64,000 nucleotides of DNA from an uncultured Planctomycetales bacterium (GCA_964413025.1 CAYPRG010000001.1:464-64463), one strand, 5' to 3'; counted from the stretch's first letter, positions 1,181 through 62,500 are shown. Notes: generated by a model from the letters alone, not told the origin. Made by a program: numbers and translations.

Positions 1181-4100
1181 CCCATCATAGCCATCAAAGA
1201 AAAGGAGAGGAACAAAACAAAACAGTATTTCCCGAACTTATGCAGCGGAGGAATATACTTTTTCACTTCTCCTTGCGGTTCCTTCTTATCCTGATTAGTG
1301 CCTTTAAAATCCCCCCTGCTCCTCTCAATCATAACCATACTGTTATGCAATTCAACTAAAGCATGGTAGCACTTTTGCTTAATCTCCTGATATAAAGAAG
1401 CTTCCATAGAATATTTTCCGGCAATATTAACCAGGTCTATCAATGTCTTTTCTATGCTTTCCAAACTCCCTTTATCCTCAAGGCATAAATTAGCAAATAC
1501 AGCCAGCTCCTTTACAGGCTTAATCATATTTTTGACAGCCCGGGAAACAAACTCTTCCCGGCTTAAGCCTGTCTTGCAATTTATTGAGGGTTCTGAAAAC
1601 AATTTCCTTAATTCATCCCCGGCGTTCATTAATCCCTTCAAAATCATAACCAACTCCTGCTTCAGCGAAGTAGTTATGTAATTAGCCAAATACAGGGAAT
1701 CATCCCCATAGACATCTTCAAGCGGCTCTTCGCTTCCGATGGCCTTAAATTTACGCTTCTGGCCCAACATGGAAGATTTAAATACCCTGGCCAGATTTTT
1801 AATTGCCGTCTCTTTATCAGGAGACTTTTCCCAGATGGTGATAATGCGGATCATCTGAGTGACCTCTCTGGGAGAGTATTTTAATTTTTTAAGGATACCC
1901 CTTACATCATCCCGTTTTTTCTCTTCGCGCCAAGTCAGGCTATCCGATACCGGGTGATAGGGTATGGCGCGGACTTGCTCCCTGGATAAACCCCGGATCA
2001 AGCCTGCTAATTCTTTCCTCGTCGGCCAAGGCGGACCGGTGAGTTTTCCGGAATCAACCAGGTATTTTACTATGGCTATTTCAAGGAGCGGGCGCATCCT
2101 TAACCTGTGGAACCCTTTGTATTCATCAGACCCTTCCTTAACACCCACCTCCGCCTCAAAGATTTCCTGCAAAGTAAGGAAATGAAAACCGGGGTCAATA
2201 TTGGGAGCGCGCGTGGCTTTATAAAATCCCTCTTTTTGCCCCAGGTAAAGCTGGTGTTCTTTTGTCGGGAATGAATTTTTAAGGTGTTCATATCCTGCCC
2301 TTTCACGGGCGATGTAATCTGAAATGGCCGAGAATAGCATGGAATCGGAGAGCGAAATAAATGCCGCCTGGTAGAAAAGCGCCCAATATAGATTAGGAGA
2401 ACCCCTGACCGCGTTAGACTTCTGTAAATATTCCAGGAAAATAGTGTTAAAGGCATCCTGGCGGGTCTTTATCCCCTCTACCCCTTCCATTTGAGACTTA
2501 ATATAAAGCAGGCGGTAATCCTGCATGAATTTAGCCAGGAGTTTACCGGCCACAATCCTATCACGAAAAATCTCAAAGACTTCTTTTGCCTGTTTAAGTT
2601 CTTCGCTGCCAACGATCCCCCTCTGGAATCTCCTGCCGATTTCTCCTAACGGGTTAAGCAAACAATTAAATTCCGGCTCATTAAAATAAATTTTATGCCG
2701 TATGTCAAAGAGGTCGTTGTAGAGGATTATCTTTGTCAATTTATAATGCCCGTAATTCAAATTTCTTAATATTTTTACGATCTTGCTCATCAGATAATCG
2801 TTCCTTGAGTCCACTTCCTGTCTCAACCTCTTTAGCCTCACTTCTTCTAAGCTTCGGATTATCTCTTTGCTTTGTCCGGCCCTTAAGGCGAAAAATGTCT
2901 GCGTCAGATGCAACAGCCCCTTGATTTGTTTAAATTTCCCCAATCCTAGAAGTTCTTTCGCATAGGAGAGCACAATACGGGCTAATTTCTTCTCCTCGCT
3001 TCTGATGCCTTTTAACTGGGAGAGTAGTCCGTCAATTTCTTCCCCTATCCCGGGAGCATCCTCGTCGGAAAGGCCTATCAATCCTTCAAGCGCTTTCGCG
3101 CAACCTGTAAGCCAAGCTATTTCTTCAAGCTCCGAATCTATCTGATGATCCTGGGCCCGGAATGCTACCCAAAGATTTTCATAAGGGATATATTTATAAG
3201 CCAAGACGGCGCTGCGGCTAACTTCCATTTTTGAATAAACTCTCTCCCGCACCAGATACTTGGAGTCTCTTACCATCAGCCAGCTGCCATCCCCTTCCTG
3301 ATTAATACGTTTTACCAAAAGCCTGTCTTTTTCTTTTTGAATGCGCACGATTGCCGATACCAAAAGAGTATTGGCTGCAGTTTCATTAGGAGAACGTTCC
3401 CCCTGCTTGTCAGTTCTCTCCAAGAAAGGCAAAGCCCGCCTGGCTTGAGTGGTTATGTCCTGCGGGATTTTGAGCATCCTGAAGTAAGGTAATTTTTTCC
3501 TCATTTGAGCTGTGACCGCGTCAAGCTCCTTAAGCACAGAAAGGCTTTCACCTTTTTTCTTTGAAGCCATTCTTCTGGCCTCCAGGATATATATTTTAAG
3601 ATTCCAAGACATAACTGATTCGTGCAGATTCTTCAAAGCGGCGATATATTCCAAACGGAAACGATTTGCCTGGGCCCGGATAGCTCTTTCTTCGGTAAAA
3701 TATAATTCATGAATGTCGATTGAAGATACAACCCATCTTCTTGCGGCAGGTTGATATCCCAAACTGATAAGAATAGCATCAATTTTTTCTCTCTCTTCTT
3801 TATTCCAACTCTTGTTATCAGCTACAACATAAGTAGCAACCATTTGTTTTTGTTCTGGGGTCAAAGCAAAAATTAATTTTTCTATGCCTTCTCTTTTGGG
3901 CGGGCCGGTAAGCTTGCCTGATTCAAATAAATACTTCACCAAAGCTATTCTGAAAGTAATCTTACCCAATCTCTCAAACGCGCAAGATATGTAAGGCTCG
4001 TCTTTATATTTTAAAGCCGCGTCAAACATGGCCTGGGCTTTGATAGGATGCATGTTTTGCGAAAGGATATCTCTACTTCCACACAACGCCTCTTCAAAGA

Positions 4101-7100
4101 CCTTGCCGGGTTCTGTTTTAAGGAAACGCTTTACCGCTTTGGTAAAGCTCTTTTGTTTCTTTATCTTCTCCCAATGATAGAGGACCTTCTCTCTGCTGTA
4201 GTGAGCTAAAAACATCACCCTCTGGAAAACTAGTTGCCGTTTTTCCTCTGAAGCGCGCTTCTTCCTTAAAAGCACCCGAATGTGCCACTTAAATGTTTCA
4301 CCCTGAGCGGGAAATACAAAACCAGCCTTACAGCCGCTCTTGAACAGGCTGGGGTTATCCCGCATTACTGCGGAAACGGTAATACTGTGCCATTTGAATC
4401 TTTTTGCCCAAGCCTCGACTACATCTTCCCGGGTGGAATAGTCAATGTGTCTATCGATTTTTGCTATTCCGAAATCAATAAAACCGAAACGCCGCACTGC
4501 GGCGCTGTAAAGGGCAACGTTTTCTTGCTGTAATTTCCAATAAGTATTTTCTTTACCGCTATTGTGCCTCTCTGCCAGCGCACGCTTGACCATGCTAGGG
4601 GCGTGATATTGGAAAGAAGCCCTGCTAAGAGGCCTTAGAGCGGCCAATTCCAATTCATCCTTATTATCAGTTAATTGATATGCCTGAGATAACCTCTCAA
4701 CTTCCTGCAATAAGAATTGTGTTCTTTTTTGATACGAGGCAAGAGACTTAAACGCTTCTTGGTTACTAATCAGGTAATTTTTTAATTCTCCGGATGCTTT
4801 TTTAGCATTTTCGTCTCTAATAACCGCGGTACGCACCAACTCCATCCAATTTACTAAATGTTTGACCGTGCCGCCATTCTGCGCGTTTAAACGGAAATTC
4901 TTATACACCTGCCAGGCCTTCTTCATCCTGGATTGCAATGAAGCCTGAGAATTTTCGTTTTCCCATTTCTTATATTCTTCAACCGCTTTATCTAATCGCG
5001 ATGGCGAAAGCGGCTTTTCCATCTTTATCCCGAAAACAGCATATAAGGCCCAGTAAAGAGCGGGGTTTTTCTTGTTTAAGATACTCGGCTTATCTACCCC
5101 TTCCTTGGCTAAAGCCATCCTGGCGGTTCCTGGAGTGGGATATTTCGGGAATACGGTACTCATCGGCCGCAAGACGGCAAATTCTAACTTATCCTTTTCT
5201 CCCTCCCCGTCCCCGTATTTCAAATCATATGCGCCGGAGATTCTTTCGGTTTCCTGCATCAGGAATCTTATTCTTCCAATATAAGACATAGACTCAAACT
5301 GTTTTTGATTCTCTAAAAGATAAAGCCTGGTTTCTCTTATCGCCCTCTTCGTATTCAGGTTCTTTATAAGAAGAATATTGACCATATCCATCCAAGTCGC
5401 CCATTGATTGGCCAAGCCGCCGTTTTGATGTCTAAGACGGTTGCTTCTATATAACTCCCATAATTTCTTTATCTTTATTATTAAAGCCGCGCCGGCATTC
5501 TTCTCTTCCCAGTTTTTATAGGCAACTAATATTTTCCTGAACGCCAAAGATTCACCACCGCATAAATCAATATCCAATAACCAGGCAGCCCTGTTCAAAA
5601 CCGCATCTTCGCGCATTCCGGCTTTAATAAATTCTTCTATTGTCACTCCCGGAGTAAGATACCTGGAGAACCTTCCATAAAGAGGGCGAAAAGTAGCAAT
5701 CTCTAATTTATCTTTTTCTCCTTCTTTATTGCTGTATTTTAATCCGTATTTCTGGGATAACTCTCCAGTCTTACTGATTAAAAATATTATCTTATTCTTG
5801 TAAGACAACCTCATGAAGTAGCCGCTGTTCAACCCCAGAAGCAGGATCATCCTTTGCGCGGCTTTCCTGGTCGCAGGTTCAGAGATGAGTGTCTTGTTGA
5901 TTAAGGCCGTCCAAATCACCCATTCATAAATAGGAGTATGGTAGCCATTCAGTTTATTAATTAAATAGAGCTCATAAACTTTTTTTGCTTTTTCCAATAA
6001 AGGCAATTCTCTATTATCCTTCTCCCAAGATTCATATTGAGCCACTGCCCTATTAAAAGCCTCCGAGGGTTCAAAATTTTTGTTCAGTAAGAATATTTTA
6101 TTTGCTGCCCTGCAGAGGCGGACCGTAAAATAAGCGCCGAAATATCCGGCGCTAATCTTATCGCTATCAGCCAATCGCTGCATCGCCCTCCATAAGGCTT
6201 TACCGAATCTACTGTCTAATCCCTTCTTCTGGGCTACGGCTTTAATGTGCCGGGCAACTGCCGGAGTGAACTCCTTATCGGACATAATCAAAGTCAACGC
6301 CCTGGCCAATCTTGCCAGAGGCAGGCGATTGGACTTTTCGGCTAAGATATCCACGGCTTCCCGCAAGGCATCTTCTACGTTAAACGCTTTGTTAATAAAG
6401 GCATTACCAACGGATTTGTTCTTTGAGCCATAAATCTCCAGCATCCTTCTTGCCCTCTTGATTGCTTTTGCCTCTATCTGCCTGATCCTTTCCCTGGTCA
6501 AACAGAGCAATTCTCCTGTTTCTTCAAGAGTCTTCGTCTGGTTAGCATCACCGCCTAATCCGTAACGCAAGGCTAATACAACCCGCTCATCGTTCTCTAA
6601 CTTTAAAAGCACGCCGCCTATATTTTCTTTTATTATAGCCTGACAGGCTTTCTTTTCGGGAGAGGCGAATGTGTTTTGTTCGATGAAACTTCCCCGGCTA
6701 TCTTCGCTTTCCTGGCTGACCGGAGCATCCAATGATATAGGGTCGCGGATTGCAAGGAGTTTCTTGATTATTTTTCCGGGTAGCTTCATTATCCTGGCCA
6801 GCTCTTCAAAGGTAGGCTCTCTCCCATGTTCCTGAACGAACTTCTGAGAAATCTTTTCTAATTTAAACTTCTTCTCCAACATAAACACCGGTACTCGTAT
6901 TGTATGGGCTTTTTCCGATAATGCCCGGGTAATTGCCTGGCGTATCCACCAAGCAGCATAGGTGGAAAATTTATTACCTCTCTTATGATCAAATTTTTCA
7001 ATAGCCGGAAACAAACCCAGTCTTCCATAGGCAAACAGGTCTTCGAATGCCATAAAACGGCCAAGGTATTTTTTAGCCTTATTGCCCACTAATCCCTGAT

Positions 7101-10100
7101 TACACACTACAAGGCAATCGGTAATGGTTTTTATTTCTTCGGGGGCCTTTGTAGAACGCAAAGCCATAAATAATTCAAATTCTTCTTCTCTGCTTAAAAT
7201 ATAGCGGCCATTCATATAAATAAGATTGGCCAGTATCCTCCTGGCTAAACTTAAGCCGTCTTCCCGGATATTCTCTAAAAGGTTTGTTGCTAAATATTCT
7301 GCTTCTTTTACATCTTCTCTACCGCCTATAAAATGCTTTTCTTCGTGCTCAAACAGCTTTATTAAAAGGTTTTCTTGGTTTAATTGGGTAAATCTGGTTA
7401 TTAGATTTAAGGGAATAAAAATCGTGGAATTATAGGTGCAGGCGGCTAAAAATCTTTCATTATTCTCATACCAAAGTAAACCCGGAGGGCCCTTTGATTT
7501 AACATCTGAATCGGGAAGGACTAGATAAATATTATCTTTACTCAACCACTTCAATATCTGCGGAGTAAGGACTAGCTGTGCTTTCTTATCCTGCGGTAAA
7601 TCCTTATAGCGGAAAAGGCGGTTCTCTTTCCGGGCTTTAGAGATGACTTTCTTTGTTCTCTTCTGAGCTTTCTCATCCACCGCGCCCTCTTCGGTGTAAA
7701 TGCCTGAGCCACAGGCAGAAACAGAATCAGCCAGATAGTCATCTAACCTTAACGTTCCGATTAAAGAATGCCACTTGCCCATCGCGTATTTTACGCAACC
7801 GCTCTTTAGGATATCTTTACCTGTGGGATTATCCTGATAAATCTCACCAGCAAAGAAAGGCTTTTTGATTATGGAAGAGGTATCTTTGAAACATTCGACA
7901 ATCAATTCAAAACAGTAGAAATCTATACGATGCTGCAGGAGGTTATGGGCAAAGGCAACCCTACCCAGACCTGTCAGCCTGAATAAACTGCGCCATAGCA
8001 CACCCCAGCCAAATCCAACTATAGCTGGCCAGTCATATTTGCGGCCTATCAGATTTTCTGCGCGGCTACAAGCTGTCTGCATAGCATCCTTATATTCATC
8101 TGCATCCTTAAATGCCTCCTGCTTAAGACGCACCACCGTTAAGCTGGAATTTTTATTTTCTAAATAACCGATTTGTTTTAAATATTCGGCTAATCTTTGT
8201 TTAATCACGCCTCTACCCAAAGCATGGACAATCCATCTCTTGCCTATATTTAGAACTCCATGGTTAACCGGGCTCTGGGTTGAGATCCTGATTAAATTGC
8301 TAAAGCTAAAGAATCCGTCGCTCTTAAATAAAGAAATATCTCCTTTGTTCAGTTTTAAAGCAATATAAGCAACTTTTATTTCCTTAAGCAGCCTCAAAAC
8401 ATTTTGCACATGGCCATAGTTTATCTTGCCAATCTTTTTCTCCTTTATCTCTCTCAACTTCAAAATAAGCTCAAGTAATCTATCTTCTAAAACATCGCCG
8501 GGCTTCCTGTCTGAAAACCCAATCACAATAGCCTTGATTTGCTGCCTTAATACTTTAGCTGAGGCACCTTGTAACCCTCGGGAGAGATGATTGAAAAGAA
8601 AATCCACATCGCCCTGCTCAATCCGTCTCTTAACCTGTTCTATATTCGCCATACCGCCTTCTTTAAAGGGCACGGAGAGCTTAATATTATTCTGCCCAAG
8701 ACGAAATAAACCATATCCCCAGGCGGGGAGTGTAACTACCATTTTTTCTTGGTCGATAACAAACTGAACATCCTCCGAACAAAGTTTCGACGTAAGTTCG
8801 CCGTTTATTTTCTCAGGGACGTTCGGCTCTCCTTTATAATAATTAAAAATACTGTTAAAATTAAGGCTAAGGCGCACCGGATAAAGCGAATGATTGACAA
8901 GAACTACGGCGTCTTCCTTATCCAAGTGCCGCACAAAAGGCACAACCCCGGTATCTTCTATGCCGACTTCTTTTCCACAAAAATCTATTTTTTCTAAGAA
9001 AGCGCTAAAGAATCTTCCTTTACGAAAAACAGGATGGGACACGAATTTAATCAACTCAACAAGCGGCTTAACCACCATAGAATTGTCTTTTAAAACATCC
9101 GGGTATGAAAACTGATATATGCCCGCGTCTGGATTCTTCATCTCCATACGCGCTCCCTCAGGGATTCTCATGCCGAGAATCTGACGTAGAGGAATAAGTT
9201 TATGCCCGGGGATGGCATAGGTAACCACCGCCGCGCCCATAAGGCGCTCCATAGAGCCGAAAGCGTCTATTGCCGGAGGCTCATCGTGATCCTCAATAAA
9301 ATGAGTGCAGTGCCTTAAAAATTCTTCCTTATGCTCACCCATAAATAAATATCCCCTCAAAGATGCAATATTCCCTTCTCTAAGTAAATCATAAAGGTGC
9401 TTATCATAAGGAAGCATTCCGCATTTCTGCAGCGTATCATGCGTTCCGTAATCGTAAGTTTCGGCAGGCATCAGCATTTTCGGATACTCTCTGCGGGCTT
9501 CCTCCCAGAATTCATTAGGCATCGTTTTCTGGAACTCTTCCCAGCTTACGCCCAAAGGAGCAATCCAGGTCTTCCAAACATGCTCCCTTAACCCCAAATG
9601 TGCCAAGTCCGCCCTGAATCCACCGTTACAAGTTAGATAGGCGATTTTTCTCATAACTTTTTTTATCATAAATCTACGGGCTCTCTCATCAAAATAATTT
9701 ACCTGAGCAAGATTTATCATAGACGGATCTTGCTCAAAGGGAGCGTTTTCCCGGGCGTGCATAAAGATAAGATCGGATCCGTTATGCCGCGAGAATGAAC
9801 GGCGATCACCTTCCATAAAAACTTTTAACTGCTCATCGCAAAGCCCTCGTGACCAATTAGGAAAATATTTTCGCACTAACTGAACAAACCGATTGTAATC
9901 TCCGCTGATCACCAGGCCGGGGGCTTTCTTAAGCAACGGCGAATCAGCGGCGATATGGTTAGTCACAAAATCAACAATCACCCTCATGCCCTTGGATTTC
10001 AAATTTTTGGCTACTGCCCGGAAATTACCATCATTGCCGGCAATCTTCGGATTTATGCGGTATCTATATACATCGTAACCGGAAGGTATTCTTTCCAGGG

Positions 10101-13100
10101 TCTCATTGTGTTGCTTGCTCCAATTTTGCATGAGTTTTTCTGAAAGCTTGCTCTCCTGCCATACCGCTTTCATCCATACAACACCGATACCCAACTCAGA
10201 AAGCCATTTCCAGAATCCCGCGGGCACCTTATTTATAATCCCGTAAGTGTCGCTTAAAGCGCGACCGTCAATTTCGGTGATTATCTGCGTAGATTCATCA
10301 GCCGGCCTGCGTAATTCACTGCTCAGGATAGTTATGGTAGATATTCTTTTCAGCTCGCGGATATAATTTTCATCAATCTCCACGATATCTTTTAATTCCT
10401 CGACGCCGGAAAGGAATACTTCTAATTCTTTTCTGTGGTCTCTATAATAAATATAAGCCTTGTGGCAAGCGCGCTTATGCGCTTCTTCTGGGGTGCAATG
10501 CAATTCTTCTAACTCTACTGATTCATGGAGTTTAAGATCGGGGAGTATTTTTTGCAGGCGGGGATCTTTAAGCAGCCGATGGATAACAAATACCAGAATA
10601 TCTTCAAATCTTTTGATTTCAAAAAGTTTTCCATTGCTGTCGCCAATAAGCTCAAACCGGGTTTTTACCCGCGGAGGGGCATGGACTAAAATACCTTCCA
10701 GCAACTTAGATATTGCCGGATCCGGCTCTTCTTTTTCCGAAAGCACCTCTGGTTTTTTGATTTCTTTTTTCGCTTTGCCATAGTAACTGCGGAGGCTAAG
10801 AGAGATGTTTCGCCCAGAATCAAAAACCGCCTCTTCTTTATCTATCCCGACATAAATAGGGTGGTATACTTTCGTGTGGAACGGTATCTGTTTCCTCATC
10901 TTATATTCTAACAATTCATCCCTTGTTGCCGAACTTGCGTCTTTGCGGAATATCTCCCACACACACTCGTGAGCATATTCTTCAAGCTCGCCGTTTTTGG
11001 TATTAAATATAAAACTCCTGGGAAGCGTACCCTGATATCGCGAATCATGAAGCAAAGTTTCTTTTATAAAGTCATCCTCTAAATTAAAATTATCGGTCAG
11101 CCATATATGTATAACTTCTTCTTTACCGGGCTTGGTTTTTATTGCCGCGAACATCTCATATATCAAGGTAAAAAGGTCAAAATTATTATTAATGTGGGCA
11201 GCCGCCGCCTCTTTGGTGGCAGGATTGTACATCAATATGCCTCTGCAGGTAGCAATACCGTAACTGGCTAATTTATAATTCTCATCATAAGCATTAGTCA
11301 CCGCCCATTCTCCCTCAATCGCTACCGCGGTATTATCAAAAGGCCTGATCTCTACGTCAAATTCCCTGCGGTCGACCCCGGGATATACCCAGAAAGTGCA
11401 AGCGTACCCCCAAGGAAGACAGTCTGTTTTTCTCCTCCAAAAAATATTTGTGCTATTGAGAAGGTCAGCTATCTTCTCTGTTAACCTGCTGGAAAAATCT
11501 TCTTCTTTTACAAGAAGCCATATCCTGTTCTTGTCCTTCCGGACGACCTCTAACCCGTTCGACGCCGCCAATGTTGGTAAAATAAACTGCCATTCTTTTT
11601 CTGAAACAGACATCTCAATATTTGCTTTTAATTCTGATCTGCCTTTCTTGATGGTTAATAAGCTGCCTATCATTAACCCGGCGGGAAATAAGGTAGGCGA
11701 GTGATTATAGAACAAGACAACCGCGGCCAAGAAAGCTAAGCATAAAAAGATAATCAAGGGGGAGAATGCCTGGCCGGAACGGTTGCCCAATGAAGCGCTC
11801 CTACGCACCAGAGCCTGTTCCATATTCTGCCTTATTTGCGGTTCGATCTTCGCATAGTCAAGGAAAGAGAAATCCGGTTGCCTGTCTTTCAAGTAAAGGC
11901 CGTGTATCTTCGAAGAATCTACCGCCGTCTGGATCATTGCTTCTGATATATAATCCGGGTCGTCTTTATATTCAAAAAGCTCAATTCCGACTTCAGCAAG
12001 GCGCCTTTTGATTTCTTCTTTTGGTACGGCCCTTAATCCTCCCTGATGGTTTATGCAGATATTCATTACGAATTGCGTATTCTTGACAAAATATTCAAAG
12101 AGAGCGCGCTTACCTAAGATTTCCTGCGGCCGGCGGGCTATCCATAAAGCCGCGGTCCTTAATGTTTTTAAACGCAGATAAACGCTACTGATACTACGCT
12201 CCATTATCTCTCCACAATTCATGCGGTATAATTCAACAGAGCCATAGAGCACCTTGCATCTATCGATATCCCTGTCGCATACAGTATTAAAACGGGATAT
12301 CCGCGGGAATATATACGCGGGTATAACATTTAAGGCCACTTCCTTTCCTTCTCTGCCCTGCACAAAAACCCTGCCATCTTTAAATGTTAAAGCCACCCCC
12401 TTCAATACTTTATATGCCGCATCTAAATCTTTTACTACCACCCAATTATCGAAGTCCGCGAATTCATTCTTCTCGCGGGCTGCCGAACCGTATAAGACCA
12501 CTGCTTTTAAATTATCCCCCAATCTTCGCTTAAGCCAATTTATATACCCATAACGCTCCTGTTCCCCCTGGGTAAGACAGGCATTCACAACGTATGTCTC
12601 TTCAGAAACGCAAGCCATAGGCAGAAGCTCAAGATACTTGATCATCCTCTTTTTTATCTCAATGAGCAGGCTCGTAGGATCATCCCTTGAGAAACGATAA
12701 GGCATAAAGGAGGCGTTTTCTCTACGTAAGAGCCCCAGAGCGATAAGCATCGCGGTTATTCTGTTATACACGTATATTTTATTGAGGAAGGTTTTATATA
12801 CGCCCCTGTTCTGGACAATATAGGAATCCATAGTGGCGATCCTCTGCGAGATCTCGGTCTGCAGCTGCAGTATTGCGCGCAATATTTTTTTTCTATAAAA
12901 TATGCCGTTGATGCCGGTCAGCGCGGATAATTTTTCTCTTCCAATATTCTGTTGAAGCTTATTTACTACTGAAGGTAAATATACCGCGAAGTTCCTGATT
13001 TCATCCACAGTCCAGGGTAACGGCAGGGTATCTTCCGGGGTTGTCTTAAGAAGGCCCTTTAGATATGAAGCGGTGGGAGAACCTTTTATAATAATCGTCC

Positions 13101-20559: not shown

Positions 20560-20562
20560 CCT
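20560..20562 (-). other. The single in-frame TAG stop codon separating the two giant open frames.
   Basis: + strand 'cta' at 20560-20562, read in the coding frame as ...[71 protein letters not shown]... Confidence 0.85.
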
Positions 20563-50500: not shown

Positions 50501-53500
50501 CCGGCTTCTTTGCCCAACCAAGATAACATCCCGCCAAAATCTGTCCCCTGCTGTATTAGCCAGGAGGTAAATACATTGTGATTAGAAAGCAATACCGTGC
50601 GATGGCGAATCCGAGGATCTTGACGTATTAAGTTCTCCGTTCTTTCAAGCTGTATATCGGAAAACTTGCTAAACTTTCTTCCGCCGGTAAAAATCGTAGC
50701 CAACGCCTTAACTATACGATCCCTAAAATTAGGGTCGCAAAGGATATCCACTATTAAATCGGCGCATTTATAATCAACCATCCGGCGCACAAAAGTAAAG
50801 AATGGCGATTCCATAAATCTTGCCTTGAGTTTTTTGCTATCATTTTCCCATTCCTTCTTAAGCTCCGCGTTAATTCCCCCAAAGGTCCCTTTAAATAACT
50901 CATCAACAAACCTCTGCTTCTGTTCTTTCTTTACGGTCAGTAGATCTTGAATAAAATCCTGCTTGAATTTGGGATTCTTTTCCAATTCAATAAAGAATTT
51001 AACGTAATTTCCGTCAACAATGCCAACTCCGGATTTATTCATCTTAGAGAAGTATTTTTTTACAAGTTCTTGAATTTTTAACCCTTGCCACCGTTCAATA
51101 TCAGAACCTTCGCTATTCCCGAATAAATCATCCTCTGCTACTTTATCAGCAAAGTCATAGAATATTTCTTCCCGTAATATTTTTGTGTGCTTGGTAGAAC
51201 ATCCTGTAATAACATCGCTTACCATCCCGGTTATCTTGACTAAATCTATTTTACCATCATAGATTGCCGAACGAAATTCTTCAGCTATTTTCAAGATATC
51301 AAACAAATAACTATTATAATAAGGCATACCGGCAGGCACAATTGTATGGTTATAATGATGCACCTTAAGATCTTTGAATGCCGGGTCATTTTTATATCCA
51401 TCCTGCCTTACGGCGGGGATGACTAAGGTGGTATTGATTTCACTGGTAGAGAAAATTAATTTCGGGCTTATGCTGCCGACCTCTACCCCCTCTTTAACAA
51501 ACCTCAATGCGACTTCGCGGTAGAGTAAAGTCTGCACAGCGCGAAAATCATCATAGCTTTCTCCGCAATAAGCTTCATGAAAAACCTGCGGGCAATAAAG
51601 CCAGTATTCTTTTAACTCAGAATAAGGATTCGCATAAATCTCAACATCCACTTCCCCTATCAAATTCATATTAATGGCTATCCCCTTATAGGTTTTAACC
51701 TTTACCAATAAATTACGGACTAAGTCAATGATGTTCTCTTTTTCTATGGTTCCGCGAGGTTCTAAAGCGCCCTGGCCTTTTATGGCCCTGGAATACAATA
51801 CGCCAAAAACATGAAGATGATTTCTTGCTTCAAGATTCCCCTGATATTGTTCCAATACCTGAAACCAACCCCTCACTAAATCAGGCTTAAAACTACCTAA
51901 GCCTCCAGCCATAAGAATCTTTGCCACTTCTCCTGTGTTATAAACCGCATCTTCCCATGAACATCCTTTCATCTTTACCAAATAATCACAGAACTCTTGC
52001 AAGAACTTCATTGATAACTCATATTCCATCTGCAGAACAAATATATCATACCCTTTCAGAGATTCGACTGACACACCTAAAGAAACTTTCTTAAATTCTT
52101 CCGCCCATTCTTTATCTACAGAATATCCTTCAGTATCTTCCTGCCTATCCTGCGCCTTAATGATAAGGGAAACTTTACGCTTTAAATTAGTGTCGCGTAA
52201 AATAACATCAATTACAGCTTGGCTGCCCCGTATTCTGTAGAGTTCGTTTAATTCTGTTAACTTTCTGGCAAATCGCTGACCCTGAAAATCCTGGTGAACT
52301 ATGAATATTCCGCCTTTTGCAATGAACTTTCTGCTCTTTCCTGCTTTAGCCTTATATAATACTCCTTTATCGGCTATACAATTGTTTGTCTCCAGGCCTA
52401 TTATTCTTCTAACAGAATCAAGGAGTTCGGGGCGGCTTTTTAATAATTTAAAGTTTATTTTCTGGACAGCCGGTTCGGGTAATTCGCGGACTAAGTGGAT
52501 AGATTCGTGGTCAAATACTACTTCTAATGTATTAAGGAGATCTTGCAGGTATTCGGGAGTATTTAAGCCCGGATTCTCAGGCGGCCCGCGGTCTAACCGC
52601 CAGTGCAAACCAATTTGTTTGGCTTTAGCATAACCTAATTCACCTTCTCTTCCGTAAAATTCCAGGGTGAATTCAATTTCTTTATTTTCGCCAATCCATT
52701 TCGCGAAGGCTTGTTTATCTTCTTTTTGCCTGCGTGCAAACGCATCGGTAATAATCCTGAGCAATGCTTCTTTTGTCTTTTCGCTTACTGGAGCAGGAAC
52801 GCCTTCAGGAAAACTAACCTGGATATTATCCTGCGCCTCTTGAGTAACTTTGACCTTAAATGTGACAGCGGGGACATCTATGGCTTCGGCGGTAGCGGGG
52901 AAATATGGATTGTAGCCATCCCAGTATGTCCAAGAAAGCCCAGAATTATACCTCTTTTTTCCTTCTAATTCGGCGGCATCTTTTTTAGCTTTCAACTCTG
53001 CAATTATAATACTTAGTTTTTCCAGCGCCTCACCAGCCTTAGTCTTAATTTCTAAATCGTCCCCATTTTCTATTAATGCTTGTAAGACAGGGATAGCAAC
53101 AGGACCAATTTTAATTAACACTTCTTCGGTAGCGCTATGGATATCTGACTCGGCATTTTCTAATGTTTTTATCAAGGCAAGTACGACGAATATGGTTTCT
53201 TTAGAAGCAACAGGTCCAATCTCACCTAATGCTTTGATGGCAGAGTAACGGCGATGCGGATCTCTTAATGCAAGGGTTAGGACCGGTATAGCTTCTTTTG
53301 CAGCCTGACCAATCTTGCCCAATGCTCCAGCAGCGGTGTAATAGACATCCCAGTCATCATCTCCGAATGCCTTAATAAGAGAAGGAACAGCAGCGCTGCC
53401 TATCTTAGCTAATGCTTCTTCAGCGCCATCTCTTTTTGCTAATCTCTTGATATGCCACTTAATCAAAAAATATTTACGCCAGACCGCAATAAACAAACTA

Positions 53501-56500
53501 GCGATTATAATGATTGTACTAATAACGATTATGCTAAGAATAATATTGTTAATAACTTCATCTTTTAAATTCTGAAATACCGTTACCCTGAGCCACTTCG
53601 CCACCAATATCATCAAAATGGCACTACCCATAACCTTACTAACTCCTTTATATAGTGAATATATTATTACCTTACGTATAATAGAAACTAATCTTGCAAC
53701 AAAAAAACCAACCAAAATCGGACCTATAACCAGAACTATAAATGACGCAATCCCCCAGAAAATCATCGAAAGGAAAGATATATCGTTACTTCCTTGCTCC
53801 AAGGGGCCGCTTTTGCCAGCGCAACCATTTAAGAACATCATTGAGCCTAAAAAAAGAAAAGCTAAAATAATTTTATTAGAATTGTCAGAAGCAAAGTTTT
53901 TAACTTCCGGGGATTTAATTACTGTGTTTTCGATGCCACGGATGTAGCCAAACTTATCTCCAGTCGTAATAAGCTTTACTTGTCTTACTCCTATTTGCCC
54001 GATCTCTACTTCGCGTAATCCTTTAATCTTCTCGTGTAGCTGTTTAAATTCTTCCGGAGTAATCTTGTTTACAATTCTTCCCAGGCTAATATGCACTAAT
54101 GGCGTATAGTGCTTATTATCTGAAAATTCTTTATATAATTTTTCTCTCAATTCAAATATCTTCTCGTCATCAACATGCCCCTGGACGAATATTGCTCCAT
54201 CAAAACCTAAATTTATGCCCTCGAATCTTATTTTGATTGGACCAACACTAGCCATAATCTTTTCTATTGTTTCGGCTATCTTCCCATTAACCTGGAACAT
54301 ATTATTGCAGTCGTTGATTAAGCTCGAAAACAAGCTGGTATGCAATAAATCACTAGGGATTAATTCTAATGCAGGGTAGACTTTCTGAATTTCTTTTCCG
54401 ATAAACGACAATTTATTAATTAATTTCTCACCTAAACCAGCACGATCTACACTTAGAGCTATTGATTGCAGTGCGGAATTTTGTAATGGCTTAGGTGTTT
54501 TGCCTTGTGCTACCATTTCGCCAGTCGCCTGCCAAATACTTCCATAAGCCTCTTCTAAACTGGTTTTATCTTTAATTAAAAGGGATTTTCTCGGTTTTTC
54601 ATCAGCTTCGTGGTTATTTTCTTTTTCAGCAATAACTGAAGAAGATTTGTCGGAAACGTTTGCTCTGGTTTGTCTTTTCCAAGAAGGAAGAGCAAAGCGG
54701 GTGATATCTTCTCCTATATATTCTCCGTGGCTACAATCGGATGGAGAAAATAGACAATCACTTACAGAATCATCCCATTCAAACCAATTACAGTCATGCG
54801 GAATCATTGGAGCAATTGGGTATTGACTTTCAGAAGCTTCTTTCTTATGCTTAGCTACTAACATTTTTTCAGTATCTTTGTCATAGGCAGGGCATTTATA
54901 TAGTTTACGACTTACTACTTCAACATTTTGTCCTACTAAAGCGATTTCATCCTTAAGTTCTTGCTCTAATTGTTCAATGGAATTCGAACGTTCAAGCATT
55001 TCGGGCAAGGCATTTCTTAATTCACTATCTTCCAATTTCTTACCTCTGGCTTCCTTAAACCATAGCGAAATAAGCCTAGCCACCCCTAAGGATTTTTCTA
55101 ATCTTTCTGGCGTAATATTGAACTTTATTACTATCTTTTTCAAATCTCTCAATAATTCTTCTCCATCATTCCTTCTCTCTAAAACACTTGCAAATTCTTC
55201 TAAACAGCAGATATTTGTTTCATATTCTATTAAATTCTTTGATATTCCAAGAGAAATGGGAACCCCGATTTTAAGAATAAAATCAGGGTTTATATCTTTG
55301 CCAATCAGCCTAACCCCCATATTTATCGTAATCTCAAGCCACTTAGATTCGCTTTTTGTTTCTAATAATTCGACTAAATCTACAATATACCCAAAATACA
55401 TTGATTTTTTTTCTAATTTATCTAGTAATAATTTAATGGAAGGATATTTTATCAAAACTAATCTTAATTTTATTTCCCTATTTTTTGAATGGTTCATTGA
55501 TAGGGTGTTTAAAAGGAATTGCAATAATTTTCTGTTCGAAAGTTCTGCCTCCGGAATTCCATACCTACACAGAGATAAAGCTATTTCTACCCTGACATCC
55601 AAATTCGGGCTCTCCGAAGCTTTAAGATAACCTCCCAATATTTGTTCTCTAGTTGCACCTAGTTTAGCTAACGACTCTGCAGCTTCCCACACTCCACAAC
55701 CTAGTGCTATAACGAGAGCCTCAATGGCTCTTTTATCATTAATTTCTCCCAAAAATTTTGCTGCATAATTACAAACATTTATATGAGGGTCGCGCAATTT
55801 TATCAAAAGCACACTAAACAACTGTTCTTTAGCTTCTAACGACGTCAGTGCTTCAAAACAGCTTCTTGCTACTTCGTAACACTGAGTTTCATTTAACGCA
55901 GAAAGTAGCTCCGGGATAGCTCGCTTATCTTTCGAGCGTCCCAAGAAAGTAACGGCCATACGAACAACTCTGTAATTACTATCATTTAGCGCCTCAATAT
56001 TTGAATCTACGCTGAAACCTGCAGGGTTAGAACATCCAACGCATTCCAATGTTTTACTAAAATTAATATAATTCACATAACCTAATTCTACTGTTTCATA
56101 AGAATGGGGTTTGGCTTCGTCATCTGACAATCCCCAATATTCTTTTTCATCAGCACTTATTATCGCATCCTTCCTAAACACCCTCCATTTATATCCTCCC
56201 CCTAAACATGACTGCACATATCTTACAACTCTATACTGGTCAGCTTTTTTGGTTTCTTTTAATGTTTTTTTCTCTATAACTATCTTATTAAAGATTTCAT
56301 TCAAGAACCTCCTAGTTGCGGATATTGGCATATCTTTATCCATACTTATGCTAAGAATTATCTTAGTAAATTCTAACATGGCGCTTATAGGAGCATCTTT
56401 ACTTGACCATATTAATTGCTTACCGTTTGAATTCATCCATTCAATCCATTTATGGGTTCCGATTTCTAAAATTTCTATATTCCTCTTGTAATATTCAACA

Positions 56501-59500
56501 TCACCTTTTGCGTATTGCCACGCAAGGGGAAGCCCTTCCTGGAGACAATTGCAAATCGGAAAACCTGAATTTGATAGCTTTACCCCTAATTGTAAACCGA
56601 AAATAAATGCTTCCTTTTGTTTAACGTCCTCTAGGTCAAAACTTTTCAGTAAAGAAGGAATTAATACTTTTGCGCTAAATTCCAACGGCAGATTATTCTT
56701 TTTTAGAGAAGATAAATATTCATTGATTACTTCACGAGCCGCGAGTTTCCTTATATGATATTTCCTTTCTAACCTCCCTATATACCAGCTTATTGGAAAT
56801 ACATACCGCCAGATAATAAGGAATAGACCAATACCAACCGGGATTGCTATAGAGGTAACAAGCGAAAATCCTAAAATAGAAGCCTTAGCCATTGAGAAAG
56901 CAGAAGTCGTTACATCTAAAGTATTACCATTTGTGCCACATCCACTCAATCCCACCAGCGCACCAAGAGAAACAAATAATATAATTGACCAGCATGGACC
57001 CCAATAATCCTGACGGTCACTGCGCCCTTCGCCAGGATAAGTTAAATCTTCCGGTTTCGCAAACTCGCTATCATTGAGATGAGAATTGAGTCTTCTTTTC
57101 TCCAGCATTTCTTGAATGGCGTAATATAATAATTGCCCGAAAAATATAAGAACAGAAACTAACAAGGCCCAGCCGGCTATAGCGTTACTATAATTATTTA
57201 ACCAAGATAATATCGAAGTAGTTTCATTCGAGTATCCAGTCTTTGCACATCCTACTAACCCCATTAACGCGCCTGTAAATAACAGGAATAAAAAAATCCT
57301 GCTAGAAGATTTAATACCACCGGAATCAGACTGCCGTAGATAATATATGTATCTCCAACCGAGACTTCCATCCTCGTATGGCCTTGGTAATTGAGAGCGC
57401 TCTATATGAGCTATTGCAGGTATATTGCCTTTCAAACTGTCATAAAAGTTTACAGCGGGATTATTTTGTTTTACATCTAAGACTATTTTGTCAGTATTTG
57501 AGTTTAAAACATATCTGATTAGTGCTTTCGCCAGTTCTGTGGCAATGCCTTCCCGGCGATGGCTTGGCGATACGGCCATCTGGTTGATGTAAATCGGGCA
57601 TCCTTCTTCAGGTCCAAAAATTAAATATCCAGTGATTTCTTTGCCATCGTAGTACACTAAGGTAGAATGGCCGGCTGCTTTGATTTTGTTGGAAACTAAG
57701 GATGGCGTGACGAAAGGCTTATCAGAAGTTTCCGCTATTGCATTGTTGAGCATTGAAATCTGATTTAACACATAGTTATTGATTTGCGTATTATCAAGCA
57801 AGAAGATAGATTCACTAATCTGCCTACCTTCAAATTTCTTTTCCTCCTCGTCCTCTCTCCTTTCAGTTTCTTGAGCAGGAATTACTGAAGCAGTTTCTGC
57901 GGAGACAGGCTTCTGAGCCTGTTGTTCCGGAAGTTTTATCTGGAAGGCAATTACTTTGCCATTTAGATTTGTATAAGCAAGCTGAACAAAAACGCAGTTA
58001 TTAAGAGAGATACTATTAGGGTTAATTTCTAAATGAATACTGGCAAATCTAATAGAAATGATATCTTTTTCTTTGAGAGGAATTAAATTGCCTTGTTTAT
58101 CCTGAATTTTAATTGTAATCTTGCCTGTCTTAATCCAATCCTTGAGGATATTTTCTGCGGTTTGAAGATTTTGCTTTACTATTCCGGGGAGTTCTGTATC
58201 TACAACCAACTCTATGGATGTATCTTTTTGCTCGACTTTAAGCGGAGGAGCCTGGGCATCACGTAAAGCCGCATCAAGGATTTCATTCAATTTTGATTCT
58301 ATCTCTGCTTCTATCTGAACAACGGGCTGATTGATTGTCTTTGAAGAATTTCTTTTAACGCGTAGTTTAATTTTTAAATTATCAAAACGAGGGCGACCAT
58401 CTTTTTGAACAGAATATTTACCATCTTCAATTATAACCTCAATATTATCCTGAATGCCGTTTGAACGCACATCTTTTGACTCTATTCTTTCGCCATTTTT
58501 GTCAAAATAACGGTTAAGAATATCATTCAGGTTGACCGGCTCGGAAACCAAATTGTTAATTTTAATATCTCCCATGAATACAGGGCCGTGGGAATTCCTA
58601 GTGAATAACACTTCTTTTGCGCCTTTAATGACTAACGACTTAAGGTTCATTATGGAAAACTTCCCAAATGCCTTCTGGCAATTGGTTAAATCATCGTAGT
58701 AAGGAATACCTCTAAACTCAATATAAGGAGGATATTTTGAAGAATCAATGTTTTCCAGCATCCAAGTTTCTTGGTTAACCCTGTAGAAGTCGCTGTCTGC
58801 CTGCAGTAAATAATCGAAAATCAATTTAATAGGAGTAAAGAACTTGGTGCGATCGGCAGGCGCATCAAGATTGACGAGACGTAACAATTTGTCTACTCCG
58901 TAGCGCTTGAGGATTTCTTTTGCCTTGTCATTCTTTTCGCAGAAATTATGCAAGTTAATAAAGCAGGAGCCGATAGGGCCTTCAATCTGAATATATTTCT
59001 CGCCGTCAGGCCCTGGCTTAAGGCCGGATATTAAATCTGAAGCATATATCTCTTGTAAATTTGCTAACTCCCCTCCAAAAACCTCTTTAACTATATCTTT
59101 TAAAATCTTACCTATGAGATCTTGATCCAAGAGAGCAATATTGGTATTAAAGTATTGTTTCCCTGCCTGGCCATAGCCTTCTTTGATGCTATTCTTTTCA
59201 AAAATGTCAGTCTGATTGTTAATTACGGCTGCGGCGCGCTCCTGCATACCTAAATACTCATAAACAATAGTGCCGTCAGGAAGGATTTTAATCTTATAAC
59301 CAAATTGCCCGCCTTTTATATCGGCTGGGATTTTGGTAGAAGTTATCATAATAATAGGAACATTATTCTTAATCATCCATTCTATGGTGTAATCGTCGGG
59401 AAAGTTATTAGTTCCGTCTCCGTTAAAGAAGGCGCGGATTGTCTTAAGATTGTTATCGAACTCTTTCCCGTCTTCTCTCTTTAGAAAAATATTCACCATT

Positions 59501-62500
59501 TCAGTTAAAAGCTTAGAGCCCCATTCGCCGTGACTTAAGTTTCCCTCTCTTTTTTTAGTAGGAATTCTTGTTTCCGGGTCAACAGAAGGATAAGGTTTAA
59601 CTATATACCAGTTCTTAATTATTCCCAATTCTTCCATAACTTTTTCATAAGTGCGTGCCGCCTCGCTGCGCTTACCCAACAGCCTATCCCGTACATCTTC
59701 AAAATATTCTGTTTCAAATAAATTGTCGTAAGTAGGTTTAGAAGCAGTGTCGCCTACACTGACTATCGGGTCAAAAGATATTATGCCTTTAAATCCTTTT
59801 GCTCTCTTGCCCCTTGTTTCTTTTATAAGACGCAATAATTTAATTTCTGCGATAGGAAGTATTTTATATCTTTCATTCTCCGGGACAGTTTCTCCTAAAT
59901 CAATCTTGAAATAAAGGTCCCCGCCCTTAGAACGCAATTCAGTCCTTCTAAATATCTGCCAAACCATCTTTTTTCTGCGCAGGCTTGTGCCTAATCCTGC
60001 GTCTAAACAGAGAAGGTGGATATTATATTCAGGAATACCTGTAACTTTGGAGATTTCTCTTCTGTATTCATCGATTTCTTTTACCAAATCCTGATAATTA
60101 ATAACGCCAAATAACTCCTTTCTCTTTTCGTCACTAAACATTTCTGAAGCAGAAAATAAAAAGTTCTTATTTATTATTAAAGCGGGCAGGTTAGGAAGAG
60201 GTCTGAGGTATTTCATAAACAAGGCCCGGAAACAGGCCTTGCTTGATTCATCCAGCTTTTCACTGCCCGTCCCCTCAATCATCAAAGCCTCTTCGATCTC
60301 TTCCGGGCTTGGCCTTTTTGCAATAGTAACTTTGGCATTCTTCAAGCATAGCTGCTCCCTTTCGTCTTCATAGAATTCCCCGTTTTCAACTGGGCGGGCC
60401 ATTTCTTCAGGTAAAGGCCTAGAGAAATAAAACTTCTCTCTGGTTCTATTTTCTATTGTAACACTACCCTCTACTATGCCCTTAAGTTCAACCGCGTTAC
60501 CGATAAATCTCAAAAAAGACTTATCAGTTATGTCTGTCCTCCTGGATATCCCACCGACAGTTAACTCCACGGATTTGCAATTTTCCGGCTTTAATCCCCC
60601 GACCGGGAATTTATCGGATTTAATTTTAGCCGGGTCGATTTCAAGATGAATAGTGTCGAATTCAATGGCAACCTGATCCTTGGGAACATCTATCCAGGCT
60701 CCTTTGCTATCCTGCAGGCGAATCTTAATCATTTCATCATCCAGCTCTTCCGCCGGATTAATGTATTCCGGCATTCCATTCATTATGGCATTGAATAAAA
60801 TCTTGGTTACTACCGGTTCTTTTACTTCTTCATTTCCTAACTGACGCTTAAAAGTGCTTACCTTTAGCTTAAGCTTAGCCTGATCAGAGATCTTAATTAC
60901 TTTAGGAGAAGCTTTTCCTCTGGTAAACTCTACGGCTTCATACTTCCTGTCCCCGGGCACTTTCTGAGGAATAGCCTTAATTTCCATATTCATATTAGGA
61001 TAAGCAACAGAGACAGCTTCAGAAGCAAATGGCACATCTACCCAATTTTCATTATCGCCATCTTTGACTAAAATTCTGAACCGGACACTCTTATCGCGTT
61101 TGATTATTTTTTGAATATTATCTTTCTGCCTGAAATCTTCCTTAATAATCACATCTATTGTGCCATCTTGATATTTAAATTTCATTTTTGACTGGACAGG
61201 AGTAACCGGCTCAAGGTCATTTATAATATCGTAAATAGCTCTCCGCTTCATATCTTTAAACCAATAAAGTAAACTTACTGCCAAGTGTACTTTCCAAGGC
61301 AGGACTGTATAAACTTCATCTGTTACCACTTCATCAAAAGCATCGCCCTTTTTCCTTGCTGATTCTAGCTTACTCACTACTACAGGATGTACGAGAAGAT
61401 TCTTTAAATCATACCCGAATAGTTTAATCAAAAGCCAATATGTAAACGGCCTTAAGATAAACATAAGCGTAATGGCCAACAGAGGAACTGATTCTTTAAG
61501 GCCTTTCCATAAATCTATACCTTTTAAATTCCCTTTGCGGTCCCGGAATAAACCATAGGCACGCATACCGCTTAAGAACGAAAGAGATGCTAAAAGATAT
61601 AATATAATGGCTGCGGCACCTAATTTCGTCAGGAAGAAAAGCCCGACTAAGAACCCAAATATAGCCGCCATAGAAGCGATACCATTAAATGGCATACCTT
61701 TAGAAAAACCTACAGAATACACCATCATAGTATTCGCATAATAGTTAGGCCTATTAAACCCTCCGATTACAGTTTTCTTAATCGTTGAAATAAAAGCGAA
61801 TATGGAATTAGAGGCATACATAATACCCTTAAAGAACAGTGCCAATAGAGGAACATAGAATGGGAAGGCTATAATAATATCCCTCAAAGTCAGAACAGAA
61901 GCTCCCCAGAAACTGGCAGATTGCCTCCAATGTCTTATAAAGTTATTGGCATTGATTGCTTCCATGAAGAAGAAGCTTATGGCGATAAAGAATACTGCTG
62001 GAGTCAAGAAAGCAAACGAGCTAAACGGAGAGAGTAACGGCAACACCGCTAAGAGAACAAGAGCAAATGCTGATATGAAATAATGAAACCATAAGAATAA
62101 ATGTGACAATTTCTTATCAACGGGTAAATCCTTGTTAAAGAATAGCGCAAATTGGTTTCTATCCATCATGAACCGGGTTACATTATAAGCGTAGCGCAAC
62201 TCTGTATTCGCCAGAGAGGAATCTAACAAGGTCGGACGGCCCCAATCCATCATGAACCAGTCTATCTGGGTAGATTCCATCAACGGCTGCTTGTTTTGTA
62301 TGACTAAGAATGAACCGGAATCTTCTCCGGGAGGGGTAAAGAGTATCGCCGCGACTTCCGGACGGCAGCATCCTTTACCGTAAAAGGTCAAGGCACCTCT
62401 ACGCGCTCTCTGCGTATCTCCTGTCCAGGTTTCCTGGGCGATAGCATAGATTTCTGGCACAGGGAACGCCCAATCTCCAGGGAAGAATGAATTCGCATTA

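Follow-up and report, generated by a model that had tools for sequence, protein, structure and literature searches.

The DNA analysed here, called the window throughout, is a stretch of 64,000 nucleotides in full length from an uncultured Planctomycetales bacterium (GCA_964413025.1 CAYPRG010000001.1:464-64463). By six-frame translation, positions 1-63999 on the minus strand are open throughout in a single frame, with 21,333 codons and 0 stops, the other five frames of the window contain 720-1949 stops each, and the plus-strand skews (C>G and T>A) agree with coding on the minus strand. The frame extends past both ends of the window and thus represents an internal fragment of a gene whose predicted protein comprises at least 21,333 amino acids (aa). 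Shine-Dalgarno-like motifs are not enriched upstream of in-frame ATGs (2.6% vs 3.0-6.2% upstream of out-of-frame ones), and internal initiation of translation is consequently unsupported. An initial annotation of this DNA had listed hydrophobic segments of about 20 aa at 11 places and had proposed that the protein is threaded through the membrane many times. Since the gene lies on the minus strand, the coordinates given there are plus-strand positions of minus-strand features; the segments were indeed found at these positions, but the gene itself is encoded on the opposite strand. As laid out below, the fragment probably belongs to a giant gene of the Omnitrophota type, whose product would be a chain of cytoplasmic-type domains with about 14 helix clusters as membrane staples.

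A Pfam scan of the translation found about 30 families above or near the cut-offs across the frame. Along the protein, a UDP-glucose pyrophosphorylase-like region, a GNAT domain, HEAT repeats and a phosphorylase-like fragment are followed by a GT20 trehalose-6-phosphate synthase, a NUDIX domain, a phosphofructokinase (PFK) and a second GNAT domain. Further HEAT repeats, a GGDEF domain (E = 1.5e-46), an MraZ-like domain, phosphoglucomutase (PGM) I-IV and once more HEAT repeats come next, then DUF4912, a GH57 domain and a branching-enzyme C-terminal domain. The remaining part comprises an ABC ATPase with MalK OB fold, DUF218, patatin, DHH/DHHA2 and methyltransferase domains and, as the last ones, an alpha-amylase, sigma-70 regions 2-4 and a GH2-like barrel. 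Four of these blocks are given here with their window positions, relative to the helix clusters that are lettered A to L below:

44911-48132, minus strand: GT20 trehalose-6-phosphate synthase, NUDIX and phosphofructokinase domains (E = 2.7e-70, 1.1e-7 and 1.4e-48), a block between clusters made up of users of cytoplasmic substrates.
28696-32280, minus strand: GGDEF, MraZ-like and phosphoglucomutase I-IV domains; clusters F and G lie on either side.
19579-20388, minus strand: ABC-transporter ATPase and MalK OB domain (E = 1.8e-30 and 2.6e-9), with clusters H and I on either side.
6454-7113, minus strand: sigma-70 regions 2, 3 and 4 (E = 1.5e-14, 3.2e-11 and 3.7e-9), between clusters K and L.

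Hydrophobic segments were scored by hydropathy, employing the Kyte-Doolittle (KD) scale over 19 residues, the Goldman-Engelman-Steitz (GES) trapezoid value H and a simple Hessa free-energy sum. Segments of 19-21 residues are present in the minus-strand frame at every one of the 11 places of the initial annotation, which had missed two further ones (window positions 25414-25542 and 36955-37095). The places listed there, namely 1183-1250, 11660-11760, 13800-14200, 18550-18760, 20563-20650, 34250-35100, 37800-38200, 49750-50250, 53450-53900, 56800-57400 and 61400-62150, correspond in this order to L, K, J, I, H, F, E, D, C, B and A as defined below. By hydropathy only, the protein contains 27-30 strong segments (H >= 1.6 / 1.4), or up to 39 if weak partners are considered, corresponding to 2.5-3.7% of its residues. 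Together, the segments form about 14 clusters with 1-6 helices each, in total about 30-40 helices, spaced every ~0.2-3.9 thousand amino acids (kaa):

61426-62091, minus strand: cluster A (aa 637-858), four to six helices; tight pairs at aa 637-679 and 773-814, a weaker segment at 707-727 and a non-conserved one at 838-858.
56806-57297, minus strand: cluster B (aa 2235-2398), two hairpins made up of four helices, with LVGC at the end of helix 1 and LSGC at the end of helix 3.
53479-53871, minus strand: cluster C (aa 3377-3507), a set of four helices with LNGC at the end of helix 1, directly followed by HEAT repeats.
49783-50121, minus strand: cluster D (aa 4627-4739), Trp/Ser/Ala-rich; two clear segments at 4671-4691 and 4719-4739 (H 1.93 and 1.68) and two marginal ones (0.62 and 0.73).
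37816-38121, minus strand: cluster E (aa 8627-8728), four helices.
36955-37095, minus strand: cluster E2 (aa 8969-9015), a signal-peptide-like helix ending in PAFAAA|SP, then a weak segment (H 2.11 and 0.99).
34192-35094, minus strand: cluster F (aa 9636-9936), a tight pair at 9636-9681, a weak segment at 9808-9828 and a pair at 9871-9936.
25414-25542, minus strand: cluster G (aa 12820-12862), a strong helix preceded by a weak partner (H 1.84 and 1.05).
20557-20658, minus strand: cluster H (aa 14448-14481), a hydrophobic stretch of 34 aa with one central Lys, just before the MalK-type ABC ATPase.
18565-18735, minus strand: cluster I (aa 15089-15145), a hairpin whose 12-aa loop is acidic; the ABC ATPase and OB domain precede it.
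13813-14118, minus strand: cluster J (aa 16628-16729), three to four helices; one stretch of 42 aa has a GGP turn.
11650-11766, minus strand: cluster K (aa 17412-17450), 43 aa free of charges with NHSPT as the turn, interpreted as a tight hairpin.
1168-1224, minus strand: segment L (aa 20926-20944), one helix flanked by Lys/Arg on both sides, just before the GH2-like TIM barrel.

In their anatomy, most clusters are tight pairs or sets of four, with loops of 1-25 aa within the pairs (polar loops of 5-25 aa), or charge-free stretches of 40-49 aa with a central turn rich in Pro, Gly or Asn (LSPFS, TKLG, GGP or NHSPT). The middle loop and the C-terminal flank of cluster C are strongly Lys/Arg-rich, a very Lys/Arg-rich loop precedes the pair at aa 9871-9936 in cluster F, where HEAT repeats come next, and the C-terminal flank of cluster G reads KKWLAKKVVVKRDR. 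Cluster H may be one long helix or a tight hairpin. The weakest among the clusters already listed in the initial annotation is cluster D, with uncharged runs of 33 and 43 aa. None of the strong segments of the named clusters overlaps a Pfam domain, and the Pfam scans gave no match over any helix cluster, be it to transporter permeases, polysaccharide synthases or other known membrane-domain families; the enzymatic domains lie between the clusters of putative membrane helices, as had been proposed. Weaker, sub-threshold hydrophobic peaks occur inside the GT20, GH57 or patatin domains and were not part of the earlier list.

Given the length of 21 kaa and a composition rich in Ile, Leu and Phe, the chance level was determined from 200 residue shuffles of the protein. 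With 19-residue windows at KD >= 1.6, 36 segments were observed and 33 expected, so that there is no excess. At KD >= 2.2, the protein has 14 segments compared to 3.0 in the shuffles, at KD >= 2.5 it has 8 compared to 0.64, at GES H >= 1.8 it has 21 compared to 1.9, and 22 segments possess a Hessa sum <= 1 kcal/mol where 2.7 were expected. Neighbouring pairs at most 80 residues apart number 12 (expected 0.06), uncharged runs of at least 30 residues likewise 12 (0.56) and those of at least 36 residues 5 (0.07), while all long uncharged runs fall in the clusters of the initial annotation. As calibration, known ABC transporters gave 11-17 segments at H >= 1.4, whereas a HEAT-repeat protein of 1755 aa gave 0; since this natural soluble protein scores 0, the shuffle null is conservative. 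In a protein of 21 kaa with this composition, a hydrophobic 20-mer on its own thus does not exceed chance; only the strong, clustered segments do. For the initial annotation this means that its conclusion of recurrent helix clusters and many membrane threadings is supported, above all by the strict cut-offs and the pairs, while segments of about 20 aa count as evidence only where they are strong and clustered, and not as such.

We consider it likely that ordinary enzyme and regulator domains of cytoplasmic type, covering glycogen, trehalose and sugar-nucleotide metabolism, PFK, GGDEF, ABC ATPase, methyltransferase and sigma-70, are strung together in a chain that is held at the inner face of the membrane. 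Most clusters would be helical hairpins or even-numbered bundles that insert co-translationally: the chain would enter the membrane from the cytoplasm, expose outside no more than a short loop of 1-25 aa that is poor in Lys and Arg, and then return. The helices would act as repeated staples tethering the long multi-enzyme polypeptide, and since only short loops would lie outside, translocation of large domains would be unnecessary. The MalK-type ATPase, lying between clusters H and I, would be in a position to dock to a permease. Cluster A differs from the others as the membrane part of a conserved, uncharacterised module of about 830 aa, while the other clusters look like evolutionarily labile linkers.

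This arrangement builds on the needs of the domains. ATP is required by PFK and the ABC ATPase, GTP by GGDEF, UDP-glucose together with glucose-6-phosphate by GT20, sugar phosphates by PGM, and further cytoplasmic needs are S-adenosylmethionine (SAM), acetyl-CoA and, for MraZ and sigma-70, DNA or RNA polymerase. Cluster D is bracketed by the phosphorylase-like and GT20 domains, clusters E-F by GNAT and GGDEF, G by PGM and the GH57 branching enzyme, H by GH57 and the ABC ATPase, J by DHH and the methyltransferase, and K by the methyltransferase and sigma-70. Because all six are bracketed by cytoplasm-dependent domains, an even number of crossings is needed in each of them. The distribution of charges points in the same direction. 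By automated count, Lys plus Arg amount to 6.6% in loops 1, 3 and 5, to 10.4% in loops 2 and 4 and to 15.3% in the flanks at the cluster boundaries (Fisher p = 6e-4), while Asp plus Glu are flat over the loop and flank classes (p = 0.68), the asymmetry being specific for Lys and Arg. Such a pattern would be predicted by the positive-inside rule for clusters that start and end in the cytoplasm. From cofactor needs, tight-pair anatomy and Lys/Arg asymmetry taken together we infer that no large annotated domain faces outside, except possibly the last one.

Several observations speak against this arrangement. Automatic counts are odd in 5 of the 14 clusters (C 3, E2 1, H 1, J 3, L 1), and parity becomes even only if borderline segments (H 0.97-1.01) or double-length segments of 41 aa are counted. 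Helix-count parity is mixed in this protein and in 20 related frames and does not decide the topology. Besides, the Lys/Arg content of the boundary flanks is not significantly above the protein average (p about 0.2) or that of random windows (p about 0.2-0.4); the charge signal is one of depletion in the inner loops. The positive-inside check, which the initial annotation had suggested, favours both cluster boundaries inside by its asymmetry. A charge test on a hand-built topology model gave p = 0.0014, yet this model is partly circular, because the charges were in view when it was made. How fragile parity calls are is demonstrated by clusters G and H: if read as single crossings they contradict each other, since both C-terminal flanks are strongly positive. 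The topology was argued from domain biochemistry, helix-pair anatomy and charge. For such proteins, most domains were predicted by TMHMM to lie outside, in calls that the authors themselves regard as unreliable (bioRxiv 10.1101/2023.11.21.568195), and the parity problem between TMHMM and DeepTMHMM was noted by the same authors (West-Roberts et al., bioRxiv 10.1101/2023.11.21.568195).

Protein searches returned few relatives, which are large proteins. The bins of the close relatives are assigned to Candidatus Omnitrophota/Omnitrophica, or labelled Planctomycetales/Planctomycetia or Eisenbacteria (third-party annotation (TPA) records). A scan of species-representative genomes gave 20 loci, in 16 of which the matching frame is open over all 13-24 kb examined, so these are giant genes too; helix density in the related frames is similar, with about 2 per kaa. 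The closest relative (L001) shares 65% identity over aa 1-1786, and one exact 60-mer of the window gave no hit in either the genome or the metagenome collection searched. Conservation was found for three clusters: A (52 relatives), C (kept in L001) and I, which is conserved in an Omnitrophica protein (P0008; 42% identity over 89 aa). At the position matching cluster B, L001 has no membrane helix; P0008 has none at the positions of clusters J and K, and the J stretch is shorter there. Cluster D is absent from the homologue in L019, in L006 and L009 the homologous domain is not preceded by segment L, and a search with aa 8500-10000 returned no homologues for clusters E and F. The lack of counterparts for B, D, J, K and L and of homologues for E and F in the available relatives likewise weighs against the proposed arrangement, as it gives no sign of selection on these particular helices. 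Judged from these comparisons, all clusters but A, C and I behave like labile linkers that join modules which have been shuffled. A self-comparison of the protein did not detect the helix clusters as paralogues of each other, and recurrence was found only for HEAT repeats and a few repeats of about 150 aa. P0008 itself is collinear with aa 14600-17972, and lacks a repeat unit, DUF218 and the stretch that holds clusters J and K.

The module containing cluster A, here called module A, covers aa 1 to about 830 on the minus strand (region of window positions 61426-63999). It is conserved in six relatives at 33-56% identity, with the invariant motifs PPGEDS, NVTRFMMDR, EAINxNNxxRHWR and PFYV, and a profile search of 1.84e9 representative proteins assigned 124 relatives to its family, most of them within multi-kaa proteins and almost all from Omnitrophota. 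Family-mean hydropathy over 52 relatives is kept at aa 631-688 and 767-815, where about 1% of the residues are charged; conservation is weaker at aa 708-726 and lacking at aa 838-858. Among 20 members no Pfam match was obtained, and PDB sequence and profile searches were empty. An AlphaFold2 (AF2) model based on 6 sequences reached a mean predicted local distance difference test (pLDDT) value of 49.5, and Foldseek against the PDB gave nothing at E < 0.04. A resemblance of motifs had brought up a GT48/FKS-like glucan synthase, which is unsupported, as neither Pfam nor PDB nor Foldseek gave a match. In relatives (L001, P0003-P0005) a four-helix cluster precedes module A, and a further cluster is thus expected just beyond window position 64000. 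One relative (L014/P0005) carries module A in a stand-alone protein of 2.5 kaa.

Other explanations have to be weighed against membrane staples on one side. The hydrophobic segments could be no membrane segments at all, arising by chance from the Ile/Leu/Phe-rich composition or forming the buried cores of soluble domains. The lack of an excess at KD >= 1.6 would fit this, as would the several sub-threshold peaks inside GT20, GH57 and patatin and the marginal cluster D. However, it is hard to reconcile with an at least ten-fold excess at strict cut-offs, extreme clustering and charge-free runs of 30-49 aa, with a natural soluble HEAT protein that scores zero, and with helix positions of cluster A that are kept, nearly free of charges, across the family; the Lys/Arg-specific asymmetry would remain unexplained as well. 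We consider this possibility extremely improbable. A different topology would result from single or odd sets of helices that place blocks of several kaa alternately in the cytoplasm and outside, with glycoside hydrolases and HEAT repeats displayed on the surface, where they would act in attaching to prey and digesting walls. The odd automatic counts in 5 of 14 clusters and the single strong helices at G, H and L are in line with such an alternation, the GH2-like, alpha-amylase and GH57 domains could work outside, and HEAT repeats and sugar enzymes were predicted to be extracellular by West-Roberts et al. (bioRxiv 10.1101/2023.11.21.568195), who nevertheless call their own localisations unreliable. 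The helix at aa 8969-8987 (cluster E2) moreover resembles a cleavable Sec signal peptide (AFA|AA), and about 620 aa up to the next pair hold no annotated cytoplasmic domain. On the other hand, PFK, GT20, PGM, GGDEF, ABC ATPase, SAM methyltransferase, GNAT, NUDIX, MraZ and sigma-70 have no extracellular substrates or partners according to established biochemistry. Single crossings at both G and H exclude one another, the Lys/Arg asymmetry favours both boundaries inside, and the translocation of blocks that are thousands of residues long would call for a SecA-type motor, which was not detected in the Pfam scans of the window. Domains alternating across the membrane are thus less likely than staples on the same side, and we regard the alternation as unlikely. 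If any large segment is outside, the stretch of about 620 aa after the E2 helix (...ATPAFAAA|SP), which contains no annotated domain, is the best candidate.

The third explanation to be considered is a processed polyprotein. It starts from the ends of three helices in clusters B and C:

57247-57297, minus strand: lipobox-like helix end LVGC (aa 2235-2251), cluster B helix 1.
56938-56994, minus strand: lipobox-like helix end LSGC (aa 2336-2354), cluster B helix 3.
53821-53871, minus strand: lipobox-like helix end LNGC (aa 3377-3393), cluster C helix 1, with an unusual Asn at -2.

LVGC and LSGC fit the lipobox [LVI][ASTVI][GAS]C, and each of the three L-x-G-C helices has a basic n-region before it, an h-region of 13-15 aa and a loop rich in Ser, Thr, Gly and Asn after it. 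By eye, the hairpins of cluster B look like a tandem duplicate (GALMGLVGC vs GALVGLSGC). If the three L-x-G-C helices and the Sec-like A-x-A helix acted as signal peptides, lipidation and/or cleavage by Lgt/LspA or signal peptidase I would release several membrane-anchored products, much as internal signal sequences are sites of cutting in viral polyproteins. This would be supported by the full lipoprotein signal peptide anatomy of the motifs and by their number, as 3 lipobox-ended helices occur in this protein compared to 0 in mirror-image controls. L001 retains the Gly-Cys of the motif in cluster C (aa 3926-3944 of the L001 frame) despite a surrounding identity of about 27%, the giant open frame of another relative (L011) carries a Met-initiated fossil signal peptide, MARSNTLILALGLNALLFLIGC|SGG, at aa ~2399-2420, and cleavage of giant proteins was raised as a possibility by West-Roberts et al. 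(bioRxiv 10.1101/2023.11.21.568195). However, over 129 kaa of related giant frames there are only 6 forward cases vs 2 mirror controls, a weak signal for lipobox-ended helices as a general feature. All three motifs lie more than 2,200 residues into the frame, away from the N-terminal location of genuine lipoprotein signals, and a return helix follows 13-23 aa after each motif, unlike in normal lipoproteins. The motifs may be fossils of fused lipoprotein genes. Processing into several anchored products is quite improbable in our view, and that the internal L-x-G-C and A-x-A signals are functional, with Lgt/LspA and signal peptidase I cutting the precursor into lipid- or helix-anchored multi-enzyme pieces, is highly improbable. 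Most likely, the L-x-G-C helices are relics of fused lipoprotein genes that now serve as anchor helices. They are a previously unreported detail, since lipoboxes are mentioned in neither preprint on Omnitrophota giants (bioRxiv 10.1101/2023.11.21.568195; 10.64898/2026.06.07.730766).

Giant proteins of this kind have precedents. Many membrane helices in Omnitrophota giants were already published (bioRxiv 10.1101/2023.11.21.568195; 10.64898/2026.06.07.730766), and the initial annotation was right in relating the window to metagenomic giant proteins with many transmembrane (TM) regions. For 916 long Omnitrophota proteins, DeepTMHMM predicted membrane helices or signal peptides in 94%; about 2% of residues lie in helices, and a 'TM-only' class was read as membrane-anchored with the bulk at the cytoplasmic side (10.64898/2026.06.07.730766). 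Like the 'Archaeovorin'-type Omnitrophota giants (bioRxiv 10.1101/2023.11.21.568195) and the TM-bearing 'multi-enzyme metabolic' class (10.64898/2026.06.07.730766), the window contains a stop-free open reading frame of tens of kilobases encoding more than 10,000 aa, which combines many unrelated domains, including HEAT, phosphoglucomutase, glycosyl transferases and GNAT. Its helix content of 2.5-3.7% is close to that of Omnitrophota giants (about 2-4% of residues), and its nearest relatives stem from Omnitrophota bins. While most, not all, reported members possess a SecA_DEAD-like domain and/or a C39 peptidase, neither SecA_DEAD nor C39 peptidase was found in the 21,333 aa of the window at E <= 0.01, both protein ends lying beyond it. 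Neighbouring type II secretion or pilus genes are a further trait of these giants; the window covers the interior of the reading frame alone. In contrast to the giants of West-Roberts et al., for which HEAT repeats and sugar enzymes were predicted to be extracellular (bioRxiv 10.1101/2023.11.21.568195), the domains would lie on the cytoplasmic side here.

The putative hairpins resemble reticulon-type hairpins and other tight two-helix anchors, as charge-free stretches of 40-49 aa or short-loop pairs have large soluble domains on both sides; unlike known hairpin anchors, they recur about 14-19 times in one polypeptide and show no sequence relationship to known hairpin families. Similarly, a basic n-region, a short core, L-[VSN]-G-C and a polar linker are shared with bacterial lipoprotein signal peptides (Lgt/LspA substrates), but here any N-terminus is thousands of residues away, and a return helix follows each of them. 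One long product with internal hydrophobic segments that set the side of domains is reminiscent of flavivirus-type polyproteins, by analogy only: protease sites and viral context are missing, the protein is about ten times longer and its domains are those of metabolic enzymes.

The architecture has thus been described for Omnitrophota giant proteins before and the window is a further example; as many membrane helices were already published, the gain is incremental. The additions are small, comprising the asymmetric distribution of Lys and Arg in an unbiased count, the anatomy of the hairpins, the labile nature of most clusters, the conserved module A and the lipobox motifs inside the chain. 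Nevertheless, Omnitrophota giants are among the largest predicted proteins, and the published TMHMM and DeepTMHMM calls differ on which parts are exposed. If staples were general, such proteins would be membrane-tethered metabolic and regulatory assemblies and not surface-displayed wall-degrading machines, and insertion would need only the handling of short loops by YidC/Sec.

Besides these main aspects, some features of the frame are unusual. Domains of transcription factors would not be expected inside a membrane-tethered giant chain, and yet sigma-70 regions 2-4 (6454-7113) and an MraZ-like DNA-binding domain (31390-31536) are present. HEAT blocks adjoin helix clusters at 53008-53442 (after C), 33442-34173 (after F) and 25660-26511 (before G), and are 30-36% identical to one another. 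Two kinds of repeats have no Pfam match: three tandem units of about 170 aa (window 4402-6087, aa 19305-19866) that are up to 36% identical, and a unit of about 140-170 aa repeated with 29-49% identity at aa 14911-15077, 19976-20115 and 20589-20741 (window positions 18769-19269, 3655-4074 and 1777-2235). The G+C content is 0.378 at window positions 52001-60000 and 0.40-0.45 elsewhere, and much of this low-G+C stretch (aa ~2106-3340, window 53980-57684) has diverged so far from L001, the closest relative, that similarity is no longer recognisable. Finally, domain order varies widely among relatives: the UDP-glucose pyrophosphorylase-like region abuts PGM in P0001 and L004, whereas both are 9,400 aa apart here.

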